Part shown: positions 7,133 to 63,450 of the stretch, piece by piece | Layout: every line of letters begins with the position of its first letter | Position numbering within the stretch: position 1 is the first letter of the stretch | Assembly: GCF_055900595.2 (NCBI RefSeq) | Contig: NZ_CM148325.1 | Length of the DNA stretch: 64,000 bases | Strand: one strand, 5' to 3' | The notes under the pieces: generated by a model | The model's database searches: none | What the model was told of the DNA's origin: nothing | The model's input: the letters and a program-made list of their open reading frames with translations, nothing else | Translations under genes and position numbers: made by a program

Positions 7133-7160
7133 GGGGCGTGATTATCATGCCCCTTTTTTT
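7133..7160 (+). terminator. Hairpin plus T7 run abutting the stop of the convergent rhomboid-propeller ORF
   Basis: ggggcgtgat / atcatgcccc imperfect stem followed by ttttttt; the T-run overlaps the TAA stop (reverse strand) of ORF 7159..9096. Confidence 0.45.
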
Positions 7161-9096
7161 ACGGTTCAGGGATACAAGCCACATCGCCATATTGGGGATG
7201 CCGAATAATTGCCTGCGGATCAAGCGAGCGCGTCCTGTCCATTTGGATTAACCCGTTCTTCGCCATAACAAATATCTTTCTACCATCCGCTGAAAAACGA
7301 AGATGATTAACGTAGCTGGCAGGATAAACGCCAATAATCTGCCCGGCATTAATATTGAGCAGGATGACATAACCTTGCAGGCCATATGACACCAACGCTA
7401 AATACTGACCGTCCGGGCTAATACCCTCAACAGAATAAACGCTCCTGCTACACCATTGCGTCATAATGCTGGCTTGTTGATCCCCTGTGCTTATACCTGA
7501 AATCCCCTGACTATCGGCAAAAATAACCTCACCATTTTTTGGTCGGAATCCCATCGCAGAAACGACACCACGCGCATCACCTGCGGGAAAATCTTCTTTC
7601 TGATGCGTGATGGTATTGATCCGCACGATGTTACCTCTGCCTGCTCCCGGAACCAGTAATGTTTTTTCATCCGGGGAAAGTGCCATAACCCAGGCGCCTG
7701 GTTTACCGCTCGTCCCCGTCCCGTCGTATTTCTCCAGTGGGATATCCGCCACATGCTGATAAGTCACCAGATCAATCGCTGACACACTATTACTGGTGCG
7801 ATTCATCACCCAGGCTTTTGTGCCATCACGCGAGAGGATAAGGCTGTCAGGATGGGCGCCGGTGGTAATCGACTGAATAATCTCCCCCGTCGCCACGTTA
7901 ATGACCGATACTGCATTCGCTTCAAATGAAGTCGCATACAGCAACTTTTCATCGGGGCTTAACACCAGCGATCTGACGCCCTGATCTTTACAGCCACCAC
8001 AATGTTTGACTGACTTTTCTTTCGCTATGGGCGCTGTAAAGGTATGCAGGATTTTCTTTTGTCCGAGGTCGAAAACAACAATACTGTTCGTGTTTTCAAT
8101 TGCGGCATAAAACGTATTACCATCCCGACTGATCGCCATATCATGGATATCGGCAATCTCAGCGAGCAAATCACCACTGGCCTGTTCACGACTTACCGGA
8201 GCGGGTAATGTTTCCCTGAGGGCGTTGCGTTCCTCCGCTAACTGCTGCTTTTTATGCCGTCGCTCTTGTTCAATCTCCTGCGGATAAAACTCTTCACGCA
8301 GGCTTTGCCTGACCTGCAAAACTGATTCATCAATCTGCTGCTGCACAAGCCAGATAGCCCCGGTCAGTAGAAGACTACCCGCAACAATAATCCCGCCTTC
8401 CGTAACAAGTCGGTTTTGCCCAGATAAACGCGCACTCAGCCAACCCAACGCGCCCCCCGCAATCAGGCCGCCAATGTGGCAAGCGTTATCTATTCCTGTT
8501 TGCCGGGTACCATACAACAGTGTCAGCGCCACCATACCCAACAGAGAAAATACTCGCCGCTGGTTTTTATGGTGTGTACCCGCACCTGAAGAAAGCTGTG
8601 TTGCTATCGCAGCGCCAGCTATTCCCATAATTGCCCCGGATGCCCCAACGCTGATGACTATCTGCTCACTTTCGCGTAACGCATAACAGGCGCTGATGAG
8701 CCCACCAAAGATGCCGGAGAATAACCAGATAATCAGGAGTCGCCATTTCCCCAGTATCCGTTCCGCCACTGTCCCCACCACCAGGAGTGCAAACATATTC
8801 ATCAGCAAATGGGAAAAACTACTGTGCAGAAAAACACTGCTCAATAAGCGCCAGGGTTCACCCGACAACGTGAGAGAGGCAACGTTAGCGCCGAGATGGA
8901 TGAGTGCGGATTGATCGACTTCTTCATAACTCATCCATTGTGCGAGGTAACAAAATATCCCAACACATAGCGCAAAAAGGATCAGGGTTATTGCGGGTAA
9001 TTGAACATTTAACGGCTTAACCGAAGATGCAGACATAAGGTGATTCTTCCTTGAAAAGACAGGTAAAAAAGCATTTTTCCCGTGTGCAGTTATCAT
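7159..9096 (-). CDS. Rhomboid-family intramembrane serine protease fused to a C-terminal beta-propeller-like domain (YVTN/lactonase-type repeats); uncharacterised
   Basis: 645-aa ORF. Rhomboid signatures seen directly: WRLLSSVFLHSSFSHLLMNM, catalytic-Ser motif GASGAIMG, catalytic-His motif HIGGLIAGG, about 7 hydrophobic segments. C-terminal ~330 aa carry repeated S(P/R)DG...hydrophobic-strand units (SRDGNTFYAA, SPDEKLLYAT, SRDGTKAWVM, SPDEKTLLVP, SPDGQYLALV, SADGRKIFVM). Alternative start at the ATG at 9036 (625 aa) has a better SD (aggaag). Confidence 0.8.
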   Translation of the reverse strand: MITAHGKNAFLPVFSRKNHLMSASSVKPLNVQLPAITLILFALCVGIFCYLAQWMSYEEVDQSALIHLGANVASLTLSGEPWRLLSSVFLHSSFSHLLMNMFALLVVGTVAERILGKWRLLIIWLFSGIFGGLISACYALRESEQIVISVGASGAIMGIAGAAIATQLSSGAGTHHKNQRRVFSLLGMVALTLLYGTRQTGIDNACHIGGLIAGGALGWLSARLSGQNRLVTEGGIIVAGSLLLTGAIWLVQQQIDESVLQVRQSLREEFYPQEIEQERRHKKQQLAEERNALRETLPAPVSREQASGDLLAEIADIHDMAISRDGNTFYAAIENTNSIVVFDLGQKKILHTFTAPIAKEKSVKHCGGCKDQGVRSLVLSPDEKLLYATSFEANAVSVINVATGEIIQSITTGAHPDSLILSRDGTKAWVMNRTSNSVSAIDLVTYQHVADIPLEKYDGTGTSGKPGAWVMALSPDEKTLLVPGAGRGNIVRINTITHQKEDFPAGDARGVVSAMGFRPKNGEVIFADSQGISGISTGDQQASIMTQWCSRSVYSVEGISPDGQYLALVSYGLQGYVILLNINAGQIIGVYPASYVNHLRFSADGRKIFVMAKNGLIQMDRTRSLDPQAIIRHPQYGDVACIPEP

Positions 9097-9390
9097 CCCG
9101 GCAAACGTCCCATACCGAAAAGTTAACTCTGTCCGAAATATGACTTTTTCAGCCTGAAATTACAATCGTAATTAATTCATCCCTAAGTATTTTTTGGCAT
9201 GTAAGTTGCTTTATTTACTGTGTAAGCAATGAAATCAGCCGCAACGCAACCGGGTTGCACCAACACAAATCAGCGGTAGCACCAAAAAGGTGCGGTTTAA
9301 GAATTTTGCTTCGGAATGGTGCGGCGCATCTCGCAAAAACAAACAATAAAACATCAATATCTTTACATTTAGCCAAACTAAATGTTACCT

Positions 9391-9448
9391 AACAAACACA
9401 ACACTGCACAATAAAGTTGCAGATGATAACAACACAAACACTCACAAC
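9391..9448 (+). promoter_or_regulatory. C/A-rich elements in the gltI 5' leader (candidate GcvB sRNA target site)
   Basis: aacaaacacaacactgcacaa (9391..9411) and aacaacacaaacactcacaac (9428..9448), 44-100 nt upstream of the gltI ATG; gltI is a known GcvB target through a C/A-rich leader element in Salmonella/E. coli. Confidence 0.5.
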
Positions 9449-9491
9449 GGGTATCCATGCGTTCTTAACGCAGAAGATAAAGGAGTTGGAT

Positions 9492-10400
9492 ATGCAATTA
9501 CGTAAACCTGCCACAGCAATCCTGGCCCTGGCGCTTTCCGCAGGACTGGCACAGGCAGATGACGCCGCCCCGGCAGCGGGCAGTACGCTGGACAAAATCG
9601 CCAAAAACGGTGTGATTGTCGTCGGTCACCGTGAATCTTCAGTACCTTTCTCTTATTACGACAATCAGCAAAAAGTGGTGGGTTACTCGCAGGATTACTC
9701 CAACGCCATTGTTGAAGCAGTGAAAAAGAAACTCAACAAACCGGACTTGCAGGTGAAACTGATTCCGATCACCTCACAAAACCGTATTCCTCTGCTGCAA
9801 AACGGCACTTTCGATTTTGAATGTGGTTCTACCACCAACAACGTCGAACGCCAAAAACAGGCGGCTTTCTCTGACACTATTTTCGTGGTCGGTACGCGCC
9901 TGCTGACCAAAAAGGGCGGCGATATCAAAGATTTTGCCGACCTGAAAGGCAAAGCCGTAGTCGTTACTTCCGGCACTACCTCTGAAGTTTTGCTCAACAA
10001 ACTGAATGAAGAGCAAAAAATGAATATGCGCATCATCAGCGCCAAAGATCACGGTGACTCTTTCCGCACCCTGGAAAGCGGTCGTGCCGTTGCCTTTATG
10101 ATGGATGACGCTCTGTTAGCCGGTGAGCGAGCGAAAGCGAAGAAACCAGACAACTGGGAAATCGTCGGCAAGCCGCAGTCTCAGGAAGCCTACGGTTGCA
10201 TGTTGCGTAAAGACGATCCGCAGTTCAAAAAGCTGATGGATGACACTATCGCTCAGGTGCAGACCTCCGGTGAAGCGGAAAAATGGTTTGATAAGTGGTT
10301 CAAAAATCCAATTCCGCCGAAAAACCTGAACATGAATTTCGAACTGTCGGACGAAATGAAAGCACTGTTCAAAGAACCGAATGACAAGGCACTGAACTAA
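9492..10400 (+). CDS. gltI: Glutamate/aspartate ABC transporter periplasmic binding protein
   Basis: 302 aa from the ATG at 9492 (SD aggag at 9481..9485); signal peptide MQLRKPATAILALALSAGLAQA; the ORF-track start at 9417 is an upstream in-frame extension. Confidence 0.9.
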   Translation: MQLRKPATAILALALSAGLAQADDAAPAAGSTLDKIAKNGVIVVGHRESSVPFSYYDNQQKVVGYSQDYSNAIVEAVKKKLNKPDLQVKLIPITSQNRIPLLQNGTFDFECGSTTNNVERQKQAAFSDTIFVVGTRLLTKKGGDIKDFADLKGKAVVVTSGTTSEVLLNKLNEEQKMNMRIISAKDHGDSFRTLESGRAVAFMMDDALLAGERAKAKKPDNWEIVGKPQSQEAYGCMLRKDDPQFKKLMDDTIAQVQTSGEAEKWFDKWFKNPIPPKNLNMNFELSDEMKALFKEPNDKALN

Positions 10401-10556
10401 TTACAAGAACCAGGGGCGGAAATTCCAGCCCTCTCGATTGTTACGTAGCACGGACAGACTATACGCCTGATGGTCGTTCCCCATCGGGCCTGAAAACCGC
10501 AATACGCTGGGTAACAATCTTCGAGGGTAGCAGTTAACGCTGCTACCCTCTTTTTT
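10401..10556 (+). ncRNA. sroC: SroC-like sRNA processed from the gltI-gltJ intergenic region
   Basis: Intergenic segment immediately 3' of gltI ending in a strong Rho-independent terminator (gagggtagcagttaacgctgctaccctc + tttttt at 10523..10556); position matches the known origin of SroC in the gltIJKL mRNA. The 5' end is not determinable from sequence. Confidence 0.5.
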
Positions 10557-10569
10557 CTGGAGTAGATTT

Positions 10570-39694: not shown

Positions 39695-39726
39695 CAAAAA
39701 AAACCCGCTGATTAAGCGGGTTTTGA
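39695..39726. terminator. Bidirectional intrinsic terminator between convergent crcB and cspE
   Basis: aaaaaaaa-cccgctgattaagcggg-tttt hairpin with flanking A/T runs. Confidence 0.8.
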
Positions 39727-39743
39727 ATTCTTGCTGACGTATC

Positions 39744-39953
39744 TTACAGAGCGATTACGTTTGCAGCAGAAGGGCCTTTGGCACCGTTAGTGATTTCGAA
39801 CTCTACGCGCTGACCTTCAGCAAGAGTTTTAAAACCATTAGTCTGGATTGCAGAGAAGTGTACGAACACGTCTTTGCTGCCGTCTTCCGGAGTAATGAAA
39901 CCGAATCCTTTGGACTCATTAAACCACTTAACGTTACCTTTAATCTTAGACAT
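39744..39953 (-). CDS. cspE: Cold-shock-domain protein CspE
   Basis: 69 aa from the ATG at 39953: [20 protein letters not shown] with RNP1/RNP2 motifs; the ORF track extends further upstream. Confidence 0.95.
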
Positions 39954-40127
39954 CAAAATTACCTTTACATGAAAAATAGACACAAATGCTGTGTCGGTTA
40001 CCAGTACACCAATTGTGGTACGCTTTGTCCAGTGCAACTTTACTAAAAAGTGATAAAAGTCGCGTTATTTTTGATGTTAATTATTTTAGTCATTGATTTT
40101 AAAGAAGTTACTAAAATTTCATTTGTC

Positions 40128-41276: not shown

Positions 41277-42662
41277 ATGCTGACATTCATTGAACTCCTT
41301 ATTGGGGTTGTGGTTATTGTGGGTGTAGCTCGCTACATCATTAAAGGGTATTCCGCCACCGGCGTGTTATTTGTCGGTGGCCTGTTATTGCTGATTATCA
41401 GTGCCATTATGGGGCACAAAGTGTTACCGTCCAGCCAGGCTTCAACAGGCTACAGCGCCACGGATATCGTTGAATACGTTAAAATATTGCTAATGAGCCG
41501 CGGCGGCGACCTCGGCATGATGATTATGATGCTGTGTGGCTTTGCCGCTTACATGACCCATATCGGCGCGAATGATATGGTGGTCAAGCTGGCGTCAAAA
41601 CCATTGCAGTATATTAACTCCCCTTACCTGCTGATGATTGCCGCCTATTTTGTCGCCTGTCTGATGTCTCTGGCCGTCTCTTCCGCAACCGGTCTGGGTG
41701 TTTTGCTGATGGCAACCCTGTTTCCGGTGATGGTAAACGTTGGTATCAGTCGTGGCGCAGCAGCTGCAATTTGTGCCTCTCCAGCGGCGATTATTCTTGC
41801 ACCGACTTCAGGGGATGTGGTGCTGGCGGCGCAGGCTTCCGAAATGTCGCTGATTGATTTCGCCTTCAAAACGACGCTGCCTATCTCGATTGCTGCGATT
41901 ATCGGCATGGCGATCGCCCACTTCTTCTGGCAACGTTATCTGGATAAAAAAGAGCACATCTCTCATGAAATGTTAGATGTCAGTGAAATCACCACCACTG
42001 CCCCTGCGTTTTACGCCATTCTGCCGTTCACGCCGATCATCGGAGTACTGATTTTTGACGGCAAATGGGGTCCGCAATTACACATCATCACAATTCTGGT
42101 GATCTGTATGCTGATTGCCTCCATTCTGGAGTTCATTCGCAGCTTTAATACTCAGAAAGTGTTCTCGGGCCTGGAAGTGGCTTATCGCGGGATGGCAGAT
42201 GCGTTTGCTAACGTGGTGATGCTGCTGGTTGCCGCTGGGGTATTCGCTCAGGGGCTTAGCACCATCGGCTTTATTCAAAGTCTGATTTCTATCGCCACTT
42301 CGTTTGGTTCGGCGAGTATCATCCTGATGCTGGTATTGGTGATCCTGACAATGCTGGCAGCAGTCACGACCGGTTCAGGCAATGCGCCGTTTTATGCGTT
42401 TGTTGAGATGATCCCGAAACTGGCGCACTCTTCCGGCATTAACCCGGCGTATTTGACTATCCCAATGCTGCAGGCGTCAAACCTCGGTCGTACCCTGTCA
42501 CCCGTTTCTGGCGTAGTCGTTGCGGTTGCCGGGATGGCGAAAATCTCACCATTTGAAGTCGTAAAACGCACCTCGGTGCCGGTGCTTGTTGGGCTGGTGA
42601 TTGTTATCGTTGCTACAGAGCTGATGGTGCCAGGAACGGCAGCCGCGGTAACAGGCAAGTAA
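41277..42662 (+). CDS. dcuC: Anaerobic C4-dicarboxylate transporter DcuC
   Basis: 461 aa polytopic membrane protein; SD ggagacagga; synteny with pagP and dpiA. Confidence 0.9.
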   Translation: MLTFIELLIGVVVIVGVARYIIKGYSATGVLFVGGLLLLIISAIMGHKVLPSSQASTGYSATDIVEYVKILLMSRGGDLGMMIMMLCGFAAYMTHIGANDMVVKLASKPLQYINSPYLLMIAAYFVACLMSLAVSSATGLGVLLMATLFPVMVNVGISRGAAAAICASPAAIILAPTSGDVVLAAQASEMSLIDFAFKTTLPISIAAIIGMAIAHFFWQRYLDKKEHISHEMLDVSEITTTAPAFYAILPFTPIIGVLIFDGKWGPQLHIITILVICMLIASILEFIRSFNTQKVFSGLEVAYRGMADAFANVVMLLVAAGVFAQGLSTIGFIQSLISIATSFGSASIILMLVLVILTMLAAVTTGSGNAPFYAFVEMIPKLAHSSGINPAYLTIPMLQASNLGRTLSPVSGVVVAVAGMAKISPFEVVKRTSVPVLVGLVIVIVATELMVPGTAAAVTGK

Positions 42663-43383: not shown

Positions 43384-45010
43384 TAGGTTTCACTTTCGGA
43401 ATATAGATTGAAAATAAGGTACCGCAGGGATCATTATCTTCGAGAGTGATAACACCACCGCAGCGCGTTACGTAGCTGGCAATCAAGTACAACCCAATGC
43501 CATGTTCGCCGGGCTCGTCAGCACGCGTACTGACACCCTGCTCAAATATTTTGTCTCGTAGAGACTCTGGAACGCCGCAGCCCTGATCGGCGACTTCAAT
43601 CACCACATCATCGCCTTCATCGCTGAGGAATAATTCAACGATCTTGTTTCCTTCATCGCTACGCAGGCTGGCTTCGAAGGCGTTATCAAGTAAATTGCCA
43701 ACAATGGCTGCAAACTCGGTGCTGTCCAGTCCTGGCGGCAGTTGCGAAAGATGACTTCCGGGGACGATGACCATTTTTAGCCCCAGTTCGCGGGCGCGCT
43801 GCACTTTACCAAAAAGCAGCCCCGCCACCTGGCGATCGGCAAACGCCTCGCGCAGGCTATCAATAAGCTGTTGCTGGGCCTGAGACTCCCCCTGCACCAT
43901 CGCCAACACGCGATCATACTCTTTCATCTGCAACAGACCATTGAGCGTCGACATCCAATTGAGATGCTCGTGTCGCAATGTGCGCAGGCTCTCGACGTAT
44001 TGTTTAATTTGCGTCAGTTGTGCATTGAGGGTGGATATTTCGTCTTTACTACGAAAGCTGATAATGGCCCCCAGCAAATCATCACCAGAACGAATAGCTT
44101 CCCGGTTGGCAATAACGCTCAGACCGTTAAAGTTCGCCACCACATCCTGACGTTTTTCATCAATCTGTTCGGTAAAGAAATCGGCGGGCCTGACCACTTC
44201 AGCAATGGGTTTACCCAACCATTGCCGTCCGGGGGAACTCAGCCCCAGCATCTTTCTTGCGTTACGATTGATGGCGGTAATGTAACCGTGCGGATCCACC
44301 GCAATCAGCCCTTCATAAACCGAACTAAACAGCGCCTCTTGCTGACGGACCACGCGTGCGATTTGCTTTGGCTCCATGCCCATCATTTGCCGACGGATAT
44401 GCGCGGCCAGGAACCACGACAGCAACATCAGAATCCCTAACAGCACGACAAACACGCCAGCCATCGGTAATAAAAACTCAGCCCGCCAGCTATCGATTTT
44501 ACTCACCAGGTAGCCAATCGACACCACGCCGATGACTTTTCCATCGTCATCAAAGATTGGCGTTTTGGCACGCATCGCCATGCCAATTGACCCTTTCCCG
44601 GTGATAAAGTAGCTCTCCCCTTTCTCCAGCGCGCCCGGTTTGGTGAACTGCATAGGATAACCAATTTTCTCCGGATTAGGATGGTAAAGACGAATCGAGT
44701 GCCGATCGCCAATCACCACATAATCGAAATCAGTATCTCTTTGTAATTTGTCAGCGATGGTCGCCAGCCTCTTGTAGTCACGCGTTTTCACTGCGCTGAT
44801 GATACTGTCATTAGAAGCAATAATTTTTGCCTGATTCATTGCCATGTCGCGCACATGAAGCGTTAAATAGTCCTCAAAACTGGCCGTAAAATATTGCGCC
44901 AGGGCTGCAATGACAAATATTGAGAACACCAGAATCAGCAAAAAGATACGCAGCGGAAATGCCAGTCTTTGGAAAAATGCAAACTGTTTATTCTCGTTAA
45001 GCTGCAACAT
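43352..45010 (-). CDS. dpiB: Sensor histidine kinase DpiB (CitA)
   Basis: 552 aa from the ATG at 45010 (MLQLNENKQFAFF); two TM segments flanking a periplasmic PAS-like domain; H-box LRHEHLNWMSTL; overlaps the dpiA start. Confidence 0.9.
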   Translation of the reverse strand: MLQLNENKQFAFFQRLAFPLRIFLLILVFSIFVIAALAQYFTASFEDYLTLHVRDMAMNQAKIIASNDSIISAVKTRDYKRLATIADKLQRDTDFDYVVIGDRHSIRLYHPNPEKIGYPMQFTKPGALEKGESYFITGKGSIGMAMRAKTPIFDDDGKVIGVVSIGYLVSKIDSWRAEFLLPMAGVFVVLLGILMLLSWFLAAHIRRQMMGMEPKQIARVVRQQEALFSSVYEGLIAVDPHGYITAINRNARKMLGLSSPGRQWLGKPIAEVVRPADFFTEQIDEKRQDVVANFNGLSVIANREAIRSGDDLLGAIISFRSKDEISTLNAQLTQIKQYVESLRTLRHEHLNWMSTLNGLLQMKEYDRVLAMVQGESQAQQQLIDSLREAFADRQVAGLLFGKVQRARELGLKMVIVPGSHLSQLPPGLDSTEFAAIVGNLLDNAFEASLRSDEGNKIVELFLSDEGDDVVIEVADQGCGVPESLRDKIFEQGVSTRADEPGEHGIGLYLIASYVTRCGGVITLEDNDPCGTLFSIYIPKVKPNDSSINPIDR

Positions 45011-53049: not shown

Positions 53050-53196
53050 TCCTCTGATTTACAAAAGACGCTAATTCGTCTTCCATAAACTATGACGATT
53101 AAGATTTATACATAATGCGCTGCATTGAGGAATTCCCTGAATGTGACGCAAATCACTTCAAAGAGTGAGCAACAGTCAGTATCATCATGTGAGTTA

Positions 53197-53230
53197 AACC
53201 CTCGCCGCCTGACGGTGAGGGTTTTCTTTT
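53197..53230 (+). terminator. Candidate intrinsic terminator between rna and rnk
   Basis: aaccctcgccgcc / ggtgagggtt stem followed by ttttctttt. Confidence 0.5.
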
Positions 53231-53278
53231 GGGTATGTTTATCTGCGACACTCGCAGTACCGACGACATGGAGTAAAA

Positions 53279-62253: not shown

Positions 62254-62361
62254 TTTTATTGTGCCTGACAAAGTTGCGTGTTGAAGCCACTATAACACGA
62301 TGCTAGTATTTGGCAATCAAGACGTTTAGATGTCTAAATAAAACAATAAGGACAACACAAC

Positions 62362-63450
62362 ATGCCTCACAATCCTATCCGCGTCGTCGTTGGCCCTGCT
62401 AACTACTTTTCTCATCCCGGCAGTCTCAATCACCTGCATGATTTTTTCACTGATGAACAACTTTCTCGCGCAGTGTGGATCTACGGTGAACGTGCACTTG
62501 CCGCGGCGCAAACCAAACTTCCATCGGCGTTTGAACTGCCAGGAGCAAAGCATATTTTGTTTCGCGGTCATTGCAGTGAAAGCAATGTGCAACAACTGGC
62601 GGCTGAGTCCGGTGACGATCGCAGCGTGGTGATTGGCGTCGGCGGCGGCGCACTGCTCGACACCGCGAAAGCCCTCGCCCGCCGTCTCGGTCTGCCGTTT
62701 GTTGCCGTTCCAACGATTGCCGCTACCTGCGCTGCCTGGACACCACTCTCTGTCTGGTACAACGATGCCGGACAGGCGCTACATTATGAGATTTTTGACG
62801 ACGCCAATTTTATGGTGCTGGTGGAACCGGAGATAATCCTCAATGCGCCGCAAGAATATCTGCTGGCAGGAATCGGTGACACGCTGGCGAAATGGTATGA
62901 AGCGGTGGTGCTGGCTCCTCAGCCAGAAACGCTGCCGCTAACCGTGCGGCTGGGAATCAATAATGCGCAGGTCATTCGCGACGCCTTGTTAAACAGTAGC
63001 GAACAGGCGCTTGCCGATCAGCAAAATCAGCAGTTAACGCAATCATTTTGCGATGTGGTCGATGCGATTATCGCCGGAGGCGGAATGGTCGGTGGTCTGG
63101 GCGATCGTTTTACGCGTGTGGCGGCGGCCCATGCCGTGCATAACGGTCTGACCGTTTTGCCGCAAACCGAGAAGTTTCTCCACGGCACCAAAGTCGCCTA
63201 CGGAATTCTGGTGCAAAGCGCCTTGCTGGGTCAGGATGATGTGCTGGCGCAATTAACCGGGGCGCATCAGCGTTTTCATCTGCCGACCACGCTGGCGGAG
63301 CTGGAAGTGGATATCAATAATCAGGCAGAGATCGACAAAGTGATTGCGCACACCTTGCGTCCGGCGGAATCCATTCATTACCTGCCGGTCACGCTGACAC
63401 CAGATACGTTGCGTGCAGCGTTCGAAAAAGTGGAATCGTTTAAAGTCTGA
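62362..63450 (+). CDS. ybdH: Iron-containing alcohol dehydrogenase / glycerol dehydrogenase-family oxidoreductase (hydroxycarboxylate dehydrogenase)
   Basis: 362 aa; NAD-binding motif GVGGGALLDTAKA. Confidence 0.85.
   Translation: MPHNPIRVVVGPANYFSHPGSLNHLHDFFTDEQLSRAVWIYGERALAAAQTKLPSAFELPGAKHILFRGHCSESNVQQLAAESGDDRSVVIGVGGGALLDTAKALARRLGLPFVAVPTIAATCAAWTPLSVWYNDAGQALHYEIFDDANFMVLVEPEIILNAPQEYLLAGIGDTLAKWYEAVVLAPQPETLPLTVRLGINNAQVIRDALLNSSEQALADQQNQQLTQSFCDVVDAIIAGGGMVGGLGDRFTRVAAAHAVHNGLTVLPQTEKFLHGTKVAYGILVQSALLGQDDVLAQLTGAHQRFHLPTTLAELEVDINNQAEIDKVIAHTLRPAESIHYLPVTLTPDTLRAAFEKVESFKV

Follow-up and report, generated by a model that had tools for sequence, protein, structure and literature searches.

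The C/A-rich region upstream of gltI in Escherichia coli: a probable orthologue of the Salmonella GcvB target site and a likely accessory tract

Introduction

Two C/A-rich stretches lie upstream of gltI in E. coli, and the question raised by this locus is whether one of them, both or neither serves as a target of the small RNA (sRNA) GcvB. The DNA analysed here, referred to as the window, is a stretch of 64,000 nucleotides (64 kb). A first-pass annotation of the window had placed the two stretches in tandem 44-100 nt upstream of the gltI ATG and had noted that GcvB represses gltI by pairing its G/U-rich R1 region to a C/A-rich element well upstream of the gltI ribosome-binding site (RBS). This premise agrees with the literature, both for the Salmonella element and for E. 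coli, where the GcvB-gltI interaction has been recovered by RIL-seq, CLASH and MAPS, is listed as "conserved", and has also been recovered by TRIC-seq.

In Salmonella, the CA-rich element located 45 nt upstream of the gltI AUG is described both as a translational enhancer and as the target of R1 (Sharma et al. 2007, as cited in PMC3879156, PMC4474525 and PMC11347164). Pairing of R1 with this element of the 5' UTR is Hfq-assisted, and the element works as a transferable translational enhancer. GcvB lowers 30S binding on gltI (PMC11347164). In E. coli K-12, GcvB promotes RNase E-dependent decay of gltI and release of SroC, a GcvB sponge that is processed from the gltI 3' UTR (PMC11347164). Since SroC lies in the gltI 3' UTR, one operon carries both a GcvB target site and a GcvB antagonist.

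The published work on Salmonella and K-12 suggests a sequence of events for this regulation. An unpaired C/A (ACA-rich) stretch would enhance initiation of gltI translation. When GcvB is abundant, as it is in rich medium, R1 would pair with this stretch, aided by Hfq, and reduce 30S binding from a site that is still some 35 nt away from the Shine-Dalgarno sequence (SD) on its upstream side; the untranslated gltI mRNA would become more sensitive to RNase E. Processing of the 3' UTR would then release SroC, which would in turn sponge GcvB.

The gltI locus and its C/A-rich tracts

The window derives from a non-K-12 E. coli strain, and positions 9100-9600 are 100% identical to several human-stool isolates. 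This region is matched in 5423 of 5426 complete E. coli genomes. Coverage of at least 80% of it is limited to 3236 of 5424 E. coli records, which indicates variability upstream of the gltI promoter. In the RefSeq annotation of an identical strain the gene order is lnt, a rhomboid-family gene on the opposite strand, and gltI-gltJ-gltK-gltL. The gene between lnt and gltI is a 645-aa ORF (7159-9096, minus strand), which RefSeq names a rhomboid-family intramembrane serine protease. The features of the gltI locus are collected in Table 1.

Table 1. Coordinates of features at the gltI locus. Positions are those of the window; numbers in brackets with a minus sign are relative to the gltI start codon.
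Feature	Position	Strand	Basis or remark
sigma54 (-24/-12) promoter, TGGCAT-N5-TTGCT	9195-9210	+	at -290..-300 in most of 81 species
Tract 0, C/A- and A-rich, GCAAAAACAAACAAUAAAACAUCA	9332-9357	+	at least 19/21 C/A; only in the long sigma54 leader
Candidate sigma70 promoter	-35 CAAACA 9340-9345, 18-nt spacer, -10 TACATT 9364-9369	+	start near 9376, inferred
Tract 1, C/A-rich	9391-9411 (-101..-81)	+	string occurs once; C/A 19/21
Hairpin A	9402-9425	+	MFE folds; core stem CUGCA 9404-9408 / UGCAG 9418-9422, between the tracts
Tract 2, C/A-rich	9428-9448 (-64..-44)	+	string occurs once; C/A 20/21
Hairpin B, U-GCGUU-CUU-AACGC-A	9458-9472	+	RNAalifold consensus; between tract 2 and the Shine-Dalgarno sequence
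gltI Shine-Dalgarno AAGGAG	9480-9485	+	sequence
gltI start codon	9492-9494	+	sequence, ORF list, RefSeq; CDS end 10400
SroC	10396-10558	+	Rfam RF00369, 174.8 bits, E = 7e-37

Both C/A-rich stretches of the first-pass annotation are present, and their measured positions bear out the distances given there (Table 1). Tract 2 is the sole plus-strand 21-mer in the 64-kb window with at least 20 C or A residues. The 58-nt span that covers both tracts has a C/A content of 46/58, the highest of any 58-mer on either strand of the window, and contains 10 ACA triplets (0.78 expected per 58 nt), five of them in tract 1. The term "tandem" applies loosely, to two adjacent low-complexity stretches; it does not hold in the sense of a direct repeat or of a unit that occurs twice. 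A search for direct or inverted repeats in 9300-9500 found none, so the two tracts do not make up a genuine tandem duplication. From 5' to 3', the leader is ordered as tract 1, hairpin A, tract 2, hairpin B, SD and AUG.

Rfam covariance models searched against 9150-9600 up to E = 1 gave no match, and the Rfam matches in the whole window were sroC, rnk_leader and cspA only. The rnk leader (53125-53233, plus strand, 124.9 bits) and a cspA-type thermoregulator 5' UTR (39696-40054, minus strand, 123 bits), which by position probably belongs to cspE, both match at gathering level and are unrelated to the gltI leader. The strongest C/A-rich run of the minus strand (41299-41328, at least 20/21) is antisense to the first codons of a 461-aa plus-strand ORF; since it has no R1 seed of at least 8 nt, it reflects composition only.

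Predicted pairing with GcvB R1

The window does not contain gcvB, and the K-12 sequence was used as the GcvB query; 5389 of 5425 E. coli genomes carry it at an identity of 99% or more. Perfect Watson-Crick seeds were scanned against the R1 core (GcvB nt 63-92) on both strands (128 kb). R1-complementary 10-mers formed only four clusters in this space, where shuffling predicts 2.45 individual hits; the clusters are tract 1, tract 2, a 12-mer at 62352 and one minus-strand site. The tract 2 seed, AACAACACAA, is a 10-nt perfect complement of GcvB nt 73-82, and the tract 1 seed, CAAACACAACA, is an 11-nt perfect complement of nt 79-89. The predicted duplex at tract 2 joins 9426-9450 with GcvB nt 62-84 (21 Watson-Crick pairs and one G.U pair, -27.3 kcal/mol), and that at tract 1 joins 9393-9413 with nt 71-89 (17 Watson-Crick and two G.U pairs, -23.4 kcal/mol). 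Over the various calculations, the hybrid energy of tract 2 ranged from -27 to -35 kcal/mol.

Raw hybrid energy does not discriminate, since G-rich sequences can form G.U pairs with R1. In a window-wide scan of raw energies tract 2 came second on the plus strand, and several unrelated positions reached about -30 kcal/mol. For this reason perfect-seed counts were used together with accessibility-corrected energies and a random-segment null. The corrected energies were obtained by an IntaRNA-like re-implementation in which the opening energies of both RNAs are added. Windows were restricted to R1, and RNAduplex of the full leader with full-length GcvB gives a meaningless 200-nt "duplex". In earlier work, IntaRNA and RNAup originally put the optimum in Salmonella gltI away from the verified site.

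The favourable duplex with R1 on which the first-pass annotation had staked its proposal is predicted at both tracts. Tract 2 had corrected energies of -16.6 to -18.0 kcal/mol and tract 1 of -15.3 to -16.8 kcal/mol, versus a mean of -5.1 kcal/mol (SD 3.0) for the best corrected energy in each of 220 random 172-nt segments of the window. Tract 1 falls within the top 1% of this null, and the best null segment overall (-20.4 kcal/mol) is the one that holds the gltI leader. For tract 0 a duplex of -21 kcal/mol hybrid energy and -14.0 kcal/mol after correction is predicted. The same accessibility-corrected scan of the leader predicted no favourable R1 duplex at the gltI RBS. Among shuffles of the same composition, a seed at least as long as the observed one arose with P = 0.016 (tract 1) and P = 0.064 (tract 2); the corresponding P values for a hybrid energy at least as low were 0.011 and 0.015. 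Shuffle probabilities of about 0.01-0.06 imply that base order contributes to R1 pairing besides C/A richness.

The runner-up duplex in the null lies at 44409-44436 (plus strand, -16.8 kcal/mol), antisense inside a minus-strand 572-aa ORF, and is most likely a chance match.

The longest R1 complement in the window is ACAACACAACAT at 62352-62363 (plus strand, 12 nt, GcvB nt 70-81), which sits between the SD and the ATG (62362) of hcxA/ybdH. The 12-nt perfect complement, ACAACACAACAU, lies in a predicted duplex spanning 62344-62372 (plus strand, -25.2 kcal/mol). As ybdH is a verified R1 target in Salmonella, the seed scan has an internal positive control; in E. coli this target was missed by RIL-seq and CLASH.

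Folding and accessibility of the leader

All three transcript models predict an unpaired tract 2, with a mean unpaired probability of 0.82-0.83 over the tract and 0.96-0.98 over the seed. The predicted cost of opening this seed is 0.08 kcal/mol. For the tract 1 seed the predicted unpaired probability is 0.84-0.88, and the 3' third of tract 1 lies within hairpin A.

The segment of hairpin A forms a stable hairpin (MFE of -3 kcal/mol or lower) in 57 of 58 species leaders, with registers that shift between them; 76% of cells pair in the E. coli register. Hairpin B has compensatory changes at five of its six pairs, and 87.5% of cells are paired. The joint covariation score of the two hairpins was reached by none of 500 shuffles. 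The folding predictions portray tract 2 as a single-stranded platform held open between two small conserved hairpins.

Conservation across Enterobacteriaceae and within E. coli

A scan of a genome collection provided gltI loci from 80 Enterobacteriaceae species, and zone statistics were calculated over 81 species leaders, with R1 taken as conserved in other genera, as the literature describes. The zone that contains tract 2 (-80..-36) has a median hybrid energy of -31.4 kcal/mol and a seed of at least 10 nt in 66 of 81 species. The zone that contains tract 1 (-125..-81) has a median of -17.8 kcal/mol, equal to the coding-sequence (CDS) controls, and a seed of at least 9 nt in only 5 of 81 species. 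In the RBS and three CDS control zones the medians were -14 to -18 kcal/mol, and a seed of at least 9 nt was found in none of the 81 species. Tract 0 had no perfect seed of at least 8 nt in any of them.

The sequence of tract 2 differs between lineages, being AACAACACAAACACUCACAAC in Escherichia, ACAACAUCACAA in Salmonella, Citrobacter and Enterobacter, and AACAACACAACA in others. Each version complements a different register of the internally repetitive R1. In tract 1 the core TAACAAACA is kept in many genera, whereas the R1 complement there is not.

Within E. coli, about 97% of 5421 genomes carry the identical 34-mer around tract 2. Positions 9395-9397 in tract 1 are variable: AAA, the allele of this window, occurs in 804 genomes, AAG in 1052 and AGG, the K-12 allele, in 3135. 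The A-to-G changes face U residues of GcvB, and the predicted pairing is thus almost unchanged (-23.0 vs -23.4 kcal/mol). An AAU allele (AAT in DNA) also occurs and breaks one R1 pair. A further variant, T9418C (as in JJ1886), makes the top pair of hairpin A weaker. Only 108 of about 5420 genomes have exactly the same leader haplotype as the window. The difference between 108 identical genomes for a 34-mer and 804 for a 30-mer is explicable by T9418C at the last base of the 30-mer, since BLAST trims this base from the 30-mer alignment and scores it as a mismatch in the 34-mer.

Tract 2 as the probable orthologue of the Salmonella element

The Salmonella element and E. coli tract 2 belong to the same gene and occupy the same position (-56..-45 and -64..-44, respectively). 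The Salmonella 12-mer ACAACAUCACAA ends at -45, in agreement with the published distance of 45 nt from the initiation codon. The leaders of the two species share the flanking hairpins, an invariant AUAACAAC...UCACAA frame and the pairing with R1. They differ in a 7-nt insertion (CAAACAC) in E. coli tract 2, as a result of which the E. coli duplex is longer but interrupted by two 1-nt bulges. GcvB nt 62-84 are used in E. coli, whereas one perfect 12-mer with nt 65-76 is formed in Salmonella. The evidence also differs: the Salmonella site has published genetics, whereas the E. coli site has interactome support, and compensatory mutations at the known 5' UTR site in K-12 were reported as inconclusive (PMC11347164).

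A gltI-type R1 site is characterised by a place in the leader some 45-65 nt before the AUG and clear of the SD, a seed of 7 nt or more, an unpaired target stretch and complementarity kept in related species. Tract 2, with its 10-nt seed, shows each of these features, the unpaired state by prediction. With a probability of roughly 0.9, it is the E. coli orthologue of the characterised Salmonella R1 target and translational enhancer, a finding that is already known. As its counterpart is a well-characterised site, there is nothing new in tract 2.

The possibility that the C/A-rich sequence is a chance low-complexity stretch with no regulatory role deserves very little credence. It could appeal to the short C/A-rich runs and the 8-9-nt R1 complements elsewhere in the window, which occur at about the shuffled expectation, and to the comparably strong duplex predicted antisense inside a coding region. 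Against this, the span is the most C/A-rich 58-mer of the window, the position and R1 complementarity of tract 2 are conserved across Enterobacteriaceae and nearly invariant in E. coli, and genetics and biochemistry have been published for Salmonella.

Several known sRNA targets resemble the gltI site in part. Canonical RBS-overlapping R1 sites, those of dppA, oppA and hcxA/ybdH, follow the same R1 seed logic as tract 2. Pairing there takes in the SD or AUG and can directly obstruct the ribosome, whereas the gltI site is outside the ribosome-binding window. The ACA-motif enhancer of yifK (Yang et al. 2014, PMC3879156) is, like that of gltI, a C/A-rich single-stranded ACA stretch that stimulates translation and is an R1 target; it lies immediately upstream of the SD, whereas in gltI about 35 nt, including a hairpin, separate the upstream site from the SD. 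In the AU-rich enhancer of manY targeted by SgrS and the standby site of tisB targeted by IstR-1 (PMC7534054), an upstream translation-activating element is masked and not the SD, as in gltI. These two pairs differ from GcvB-gltI in involving other sRNAs and other sequence types.

Promoters and the transcription start

The gltIJKL genes are reported to be transcribed from sigma70 and sigma54 promoters. The sigma54 promoter in Table 1 aligns with the Salmonella gltI sigma54 site TGGCACGTCTATTGCTTT, which is enriched in ChIP-chip. The corresponding start would lie near 9221, or about 170 nt before tract 1, and the resulting leader of about 271 nt would include every C/A tract. A consensus scanner for sigma70 found no promoter in 9040-9520. 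A softer sigma70 position weight matrix scan on 23 aligned genera yielded candidates only. The first candidate (Table 1) has a -10 column that recurs in 15 of 23 genera, with TTTACAT invariant and -11A and -7T retained; a start near 9376 would keep both tracts in the mRNA. The second combines a -35 TTTACA with an extended -10 TG-TACCTA that is without -7T, and its start near 9398 would cut tract 1. The third, an Escherichia-specific CTAACA/TAAAGT pair, would start near 9424 and exclude tract 1. Tract 0 overlaps the candidate sigma70 -35/UP region. A second sigma54 promoter, CTGCAC-N7-TTGCA at 9403-9420, was considered and rejected, as its spacing is 2 nt too long and its first GG reads TG.

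A transcription start downstream of the tracts had been named in the first-pass annotation as an observation that would speak against GcvB pairing. None of the starts proposed here is of this kind for tract 2, which is downstream of all candidates (sigma54 at about 9221; sigma70 at 9376, 9398 and 9424), and the K-12 interactome data imply that the site is transcribed. Tract 1 would be included with the starts at about 9221 and 9376, and cut or excluded with those near 9398 and 9424.

Other elements were seen around these promoters. A conserved NtrC-like palindrome, GCACCAAAAAGGTGC, lies at 9279-9293, with a half-site, TTGCACCA, at 9254. Since these NtrC-like sites (9254-9294) are downstream of the sigma54 promoter, the presumed enhancer would sit at about +35 to +75, an unusual geometry. 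No conserved NtrC-like site was found further upstream of the gltI sigma54 promoter in 81 species. With IS5 subtracted, a K-12 NtrC ChIP-seq peak falls in this promoter region. Enterobacteriaceae also share a near-invariant palindrome, ACATTTAG-CCAAA-CTAAATGT (9365-9385), which lies a short way upstream of tract 1 and forms a hairpin in the long leader. This palindrome may be a transcription-factor site that overlaps the candidate sigma70 promoter.

The CTAA at 9389-9392, on the 5' border of tract 1, is the site of an IS5D insertion in K-12 MG1655, 104 nt before the gltI ATG. In the K-12 stretch compared, only IS5D (1852-2801 of that stretch) is found upstream of gltI. The insertion cuts K-12 gltI off from the sigma54 promoter, the NtrC sites and the candidate sigma70 promoter, and tract 1 is left as the outermost native sequence. 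The position of IS5D fits the weak nitrogen induction reported for gltI/SroC in K-12.

The role of tract 1

Tract 1 has a seed and a favourable accessible duplex, but its complementarity is not conserved in related species. It is most likely an accessory C/A-rich part of the leader (an enhancer, an Hfq contact or simply 5'-proximal leader) and not the primary GcvB site; at most, it would be an auxiliary one.

One reading takes tract 1 to be no sRNA site at all. It would instead be part of an ACA-type enhancer, a contact for the distal face of Hfq (A-R-N) or DNA of the promoter and initiation region, and this reading stands a little short of even odds. The ACA triplets of tract 1 are in keeping with it, as ACA motifs enhance translation in yifK, and partial A-R-N repeats (AAC AAA .. 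AAC) are legible in the tract. The conservation of TAACAAACA in many genera, where the R1 complement is lost, points the same way. So do the overlap of the candidate sigma70 -10 and start positions with 9386-9398 and the location of the K-12 IS5 exactly at the 5' edge of tract 1, with nitrogen induction of the operon impaired. On the other side, the R1 complementarity of tract 1 exceeds that of same-composition shuffles (P of about 0.01-0.02), and Hfq or S1 binding, or a promoter, at these positions is putative.

The other reading is that tracts 1 and 2 are both functional R1 sites in Escherichia, redundant or cooperative, so that two GcvB molecules bind each leader or either site is enough for repression. 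This is considered unlikely. Its appeal lies in the 11-nt seed of tract 1, the accessible 5' half and the corrected energy of -15 to -17 kcal/mol, and in the AAA, AAG and AGG alleles, which keep pairing through G.U wobble. The K-12 literature also lends it some weight: besides the inconclusive compensatory mutations, the effect of R1 on SroC reportedly did not require pairing at the known site (PMC11347164). Yet A-to-G transitions are the commonest neutral change anyway, the pair-breaking AAT allele exists, and across 81 species pairing in the tract 1 zone is on a par with the CDS controls. A start near 9398 or 9424 would leave tract 1 out of the mRNA. In Salmonella, moreover, deleting 27 nt in the tract 2 region was by itself enough to abolish GcvB control of gltI, as summarised in PMC3879156.

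Implications

GcvB and gltI provide a textbook case of sRNA repression from outside the ribosome-binding site, in which a C/A-rich enhancer is masked. The recovery of tract 2 in this window shows that real sRNA target sites can be found from sequence alone. If tract 1 were a second functional site, redundancy would explain both the inconclusive compensatory results in K-12 and the R1 effect that does not require pairing at the known site (PMC11347164). As a lineage-specific R1 site, tract 1 would then illustrate on a small scale how target sites turn over within a species.
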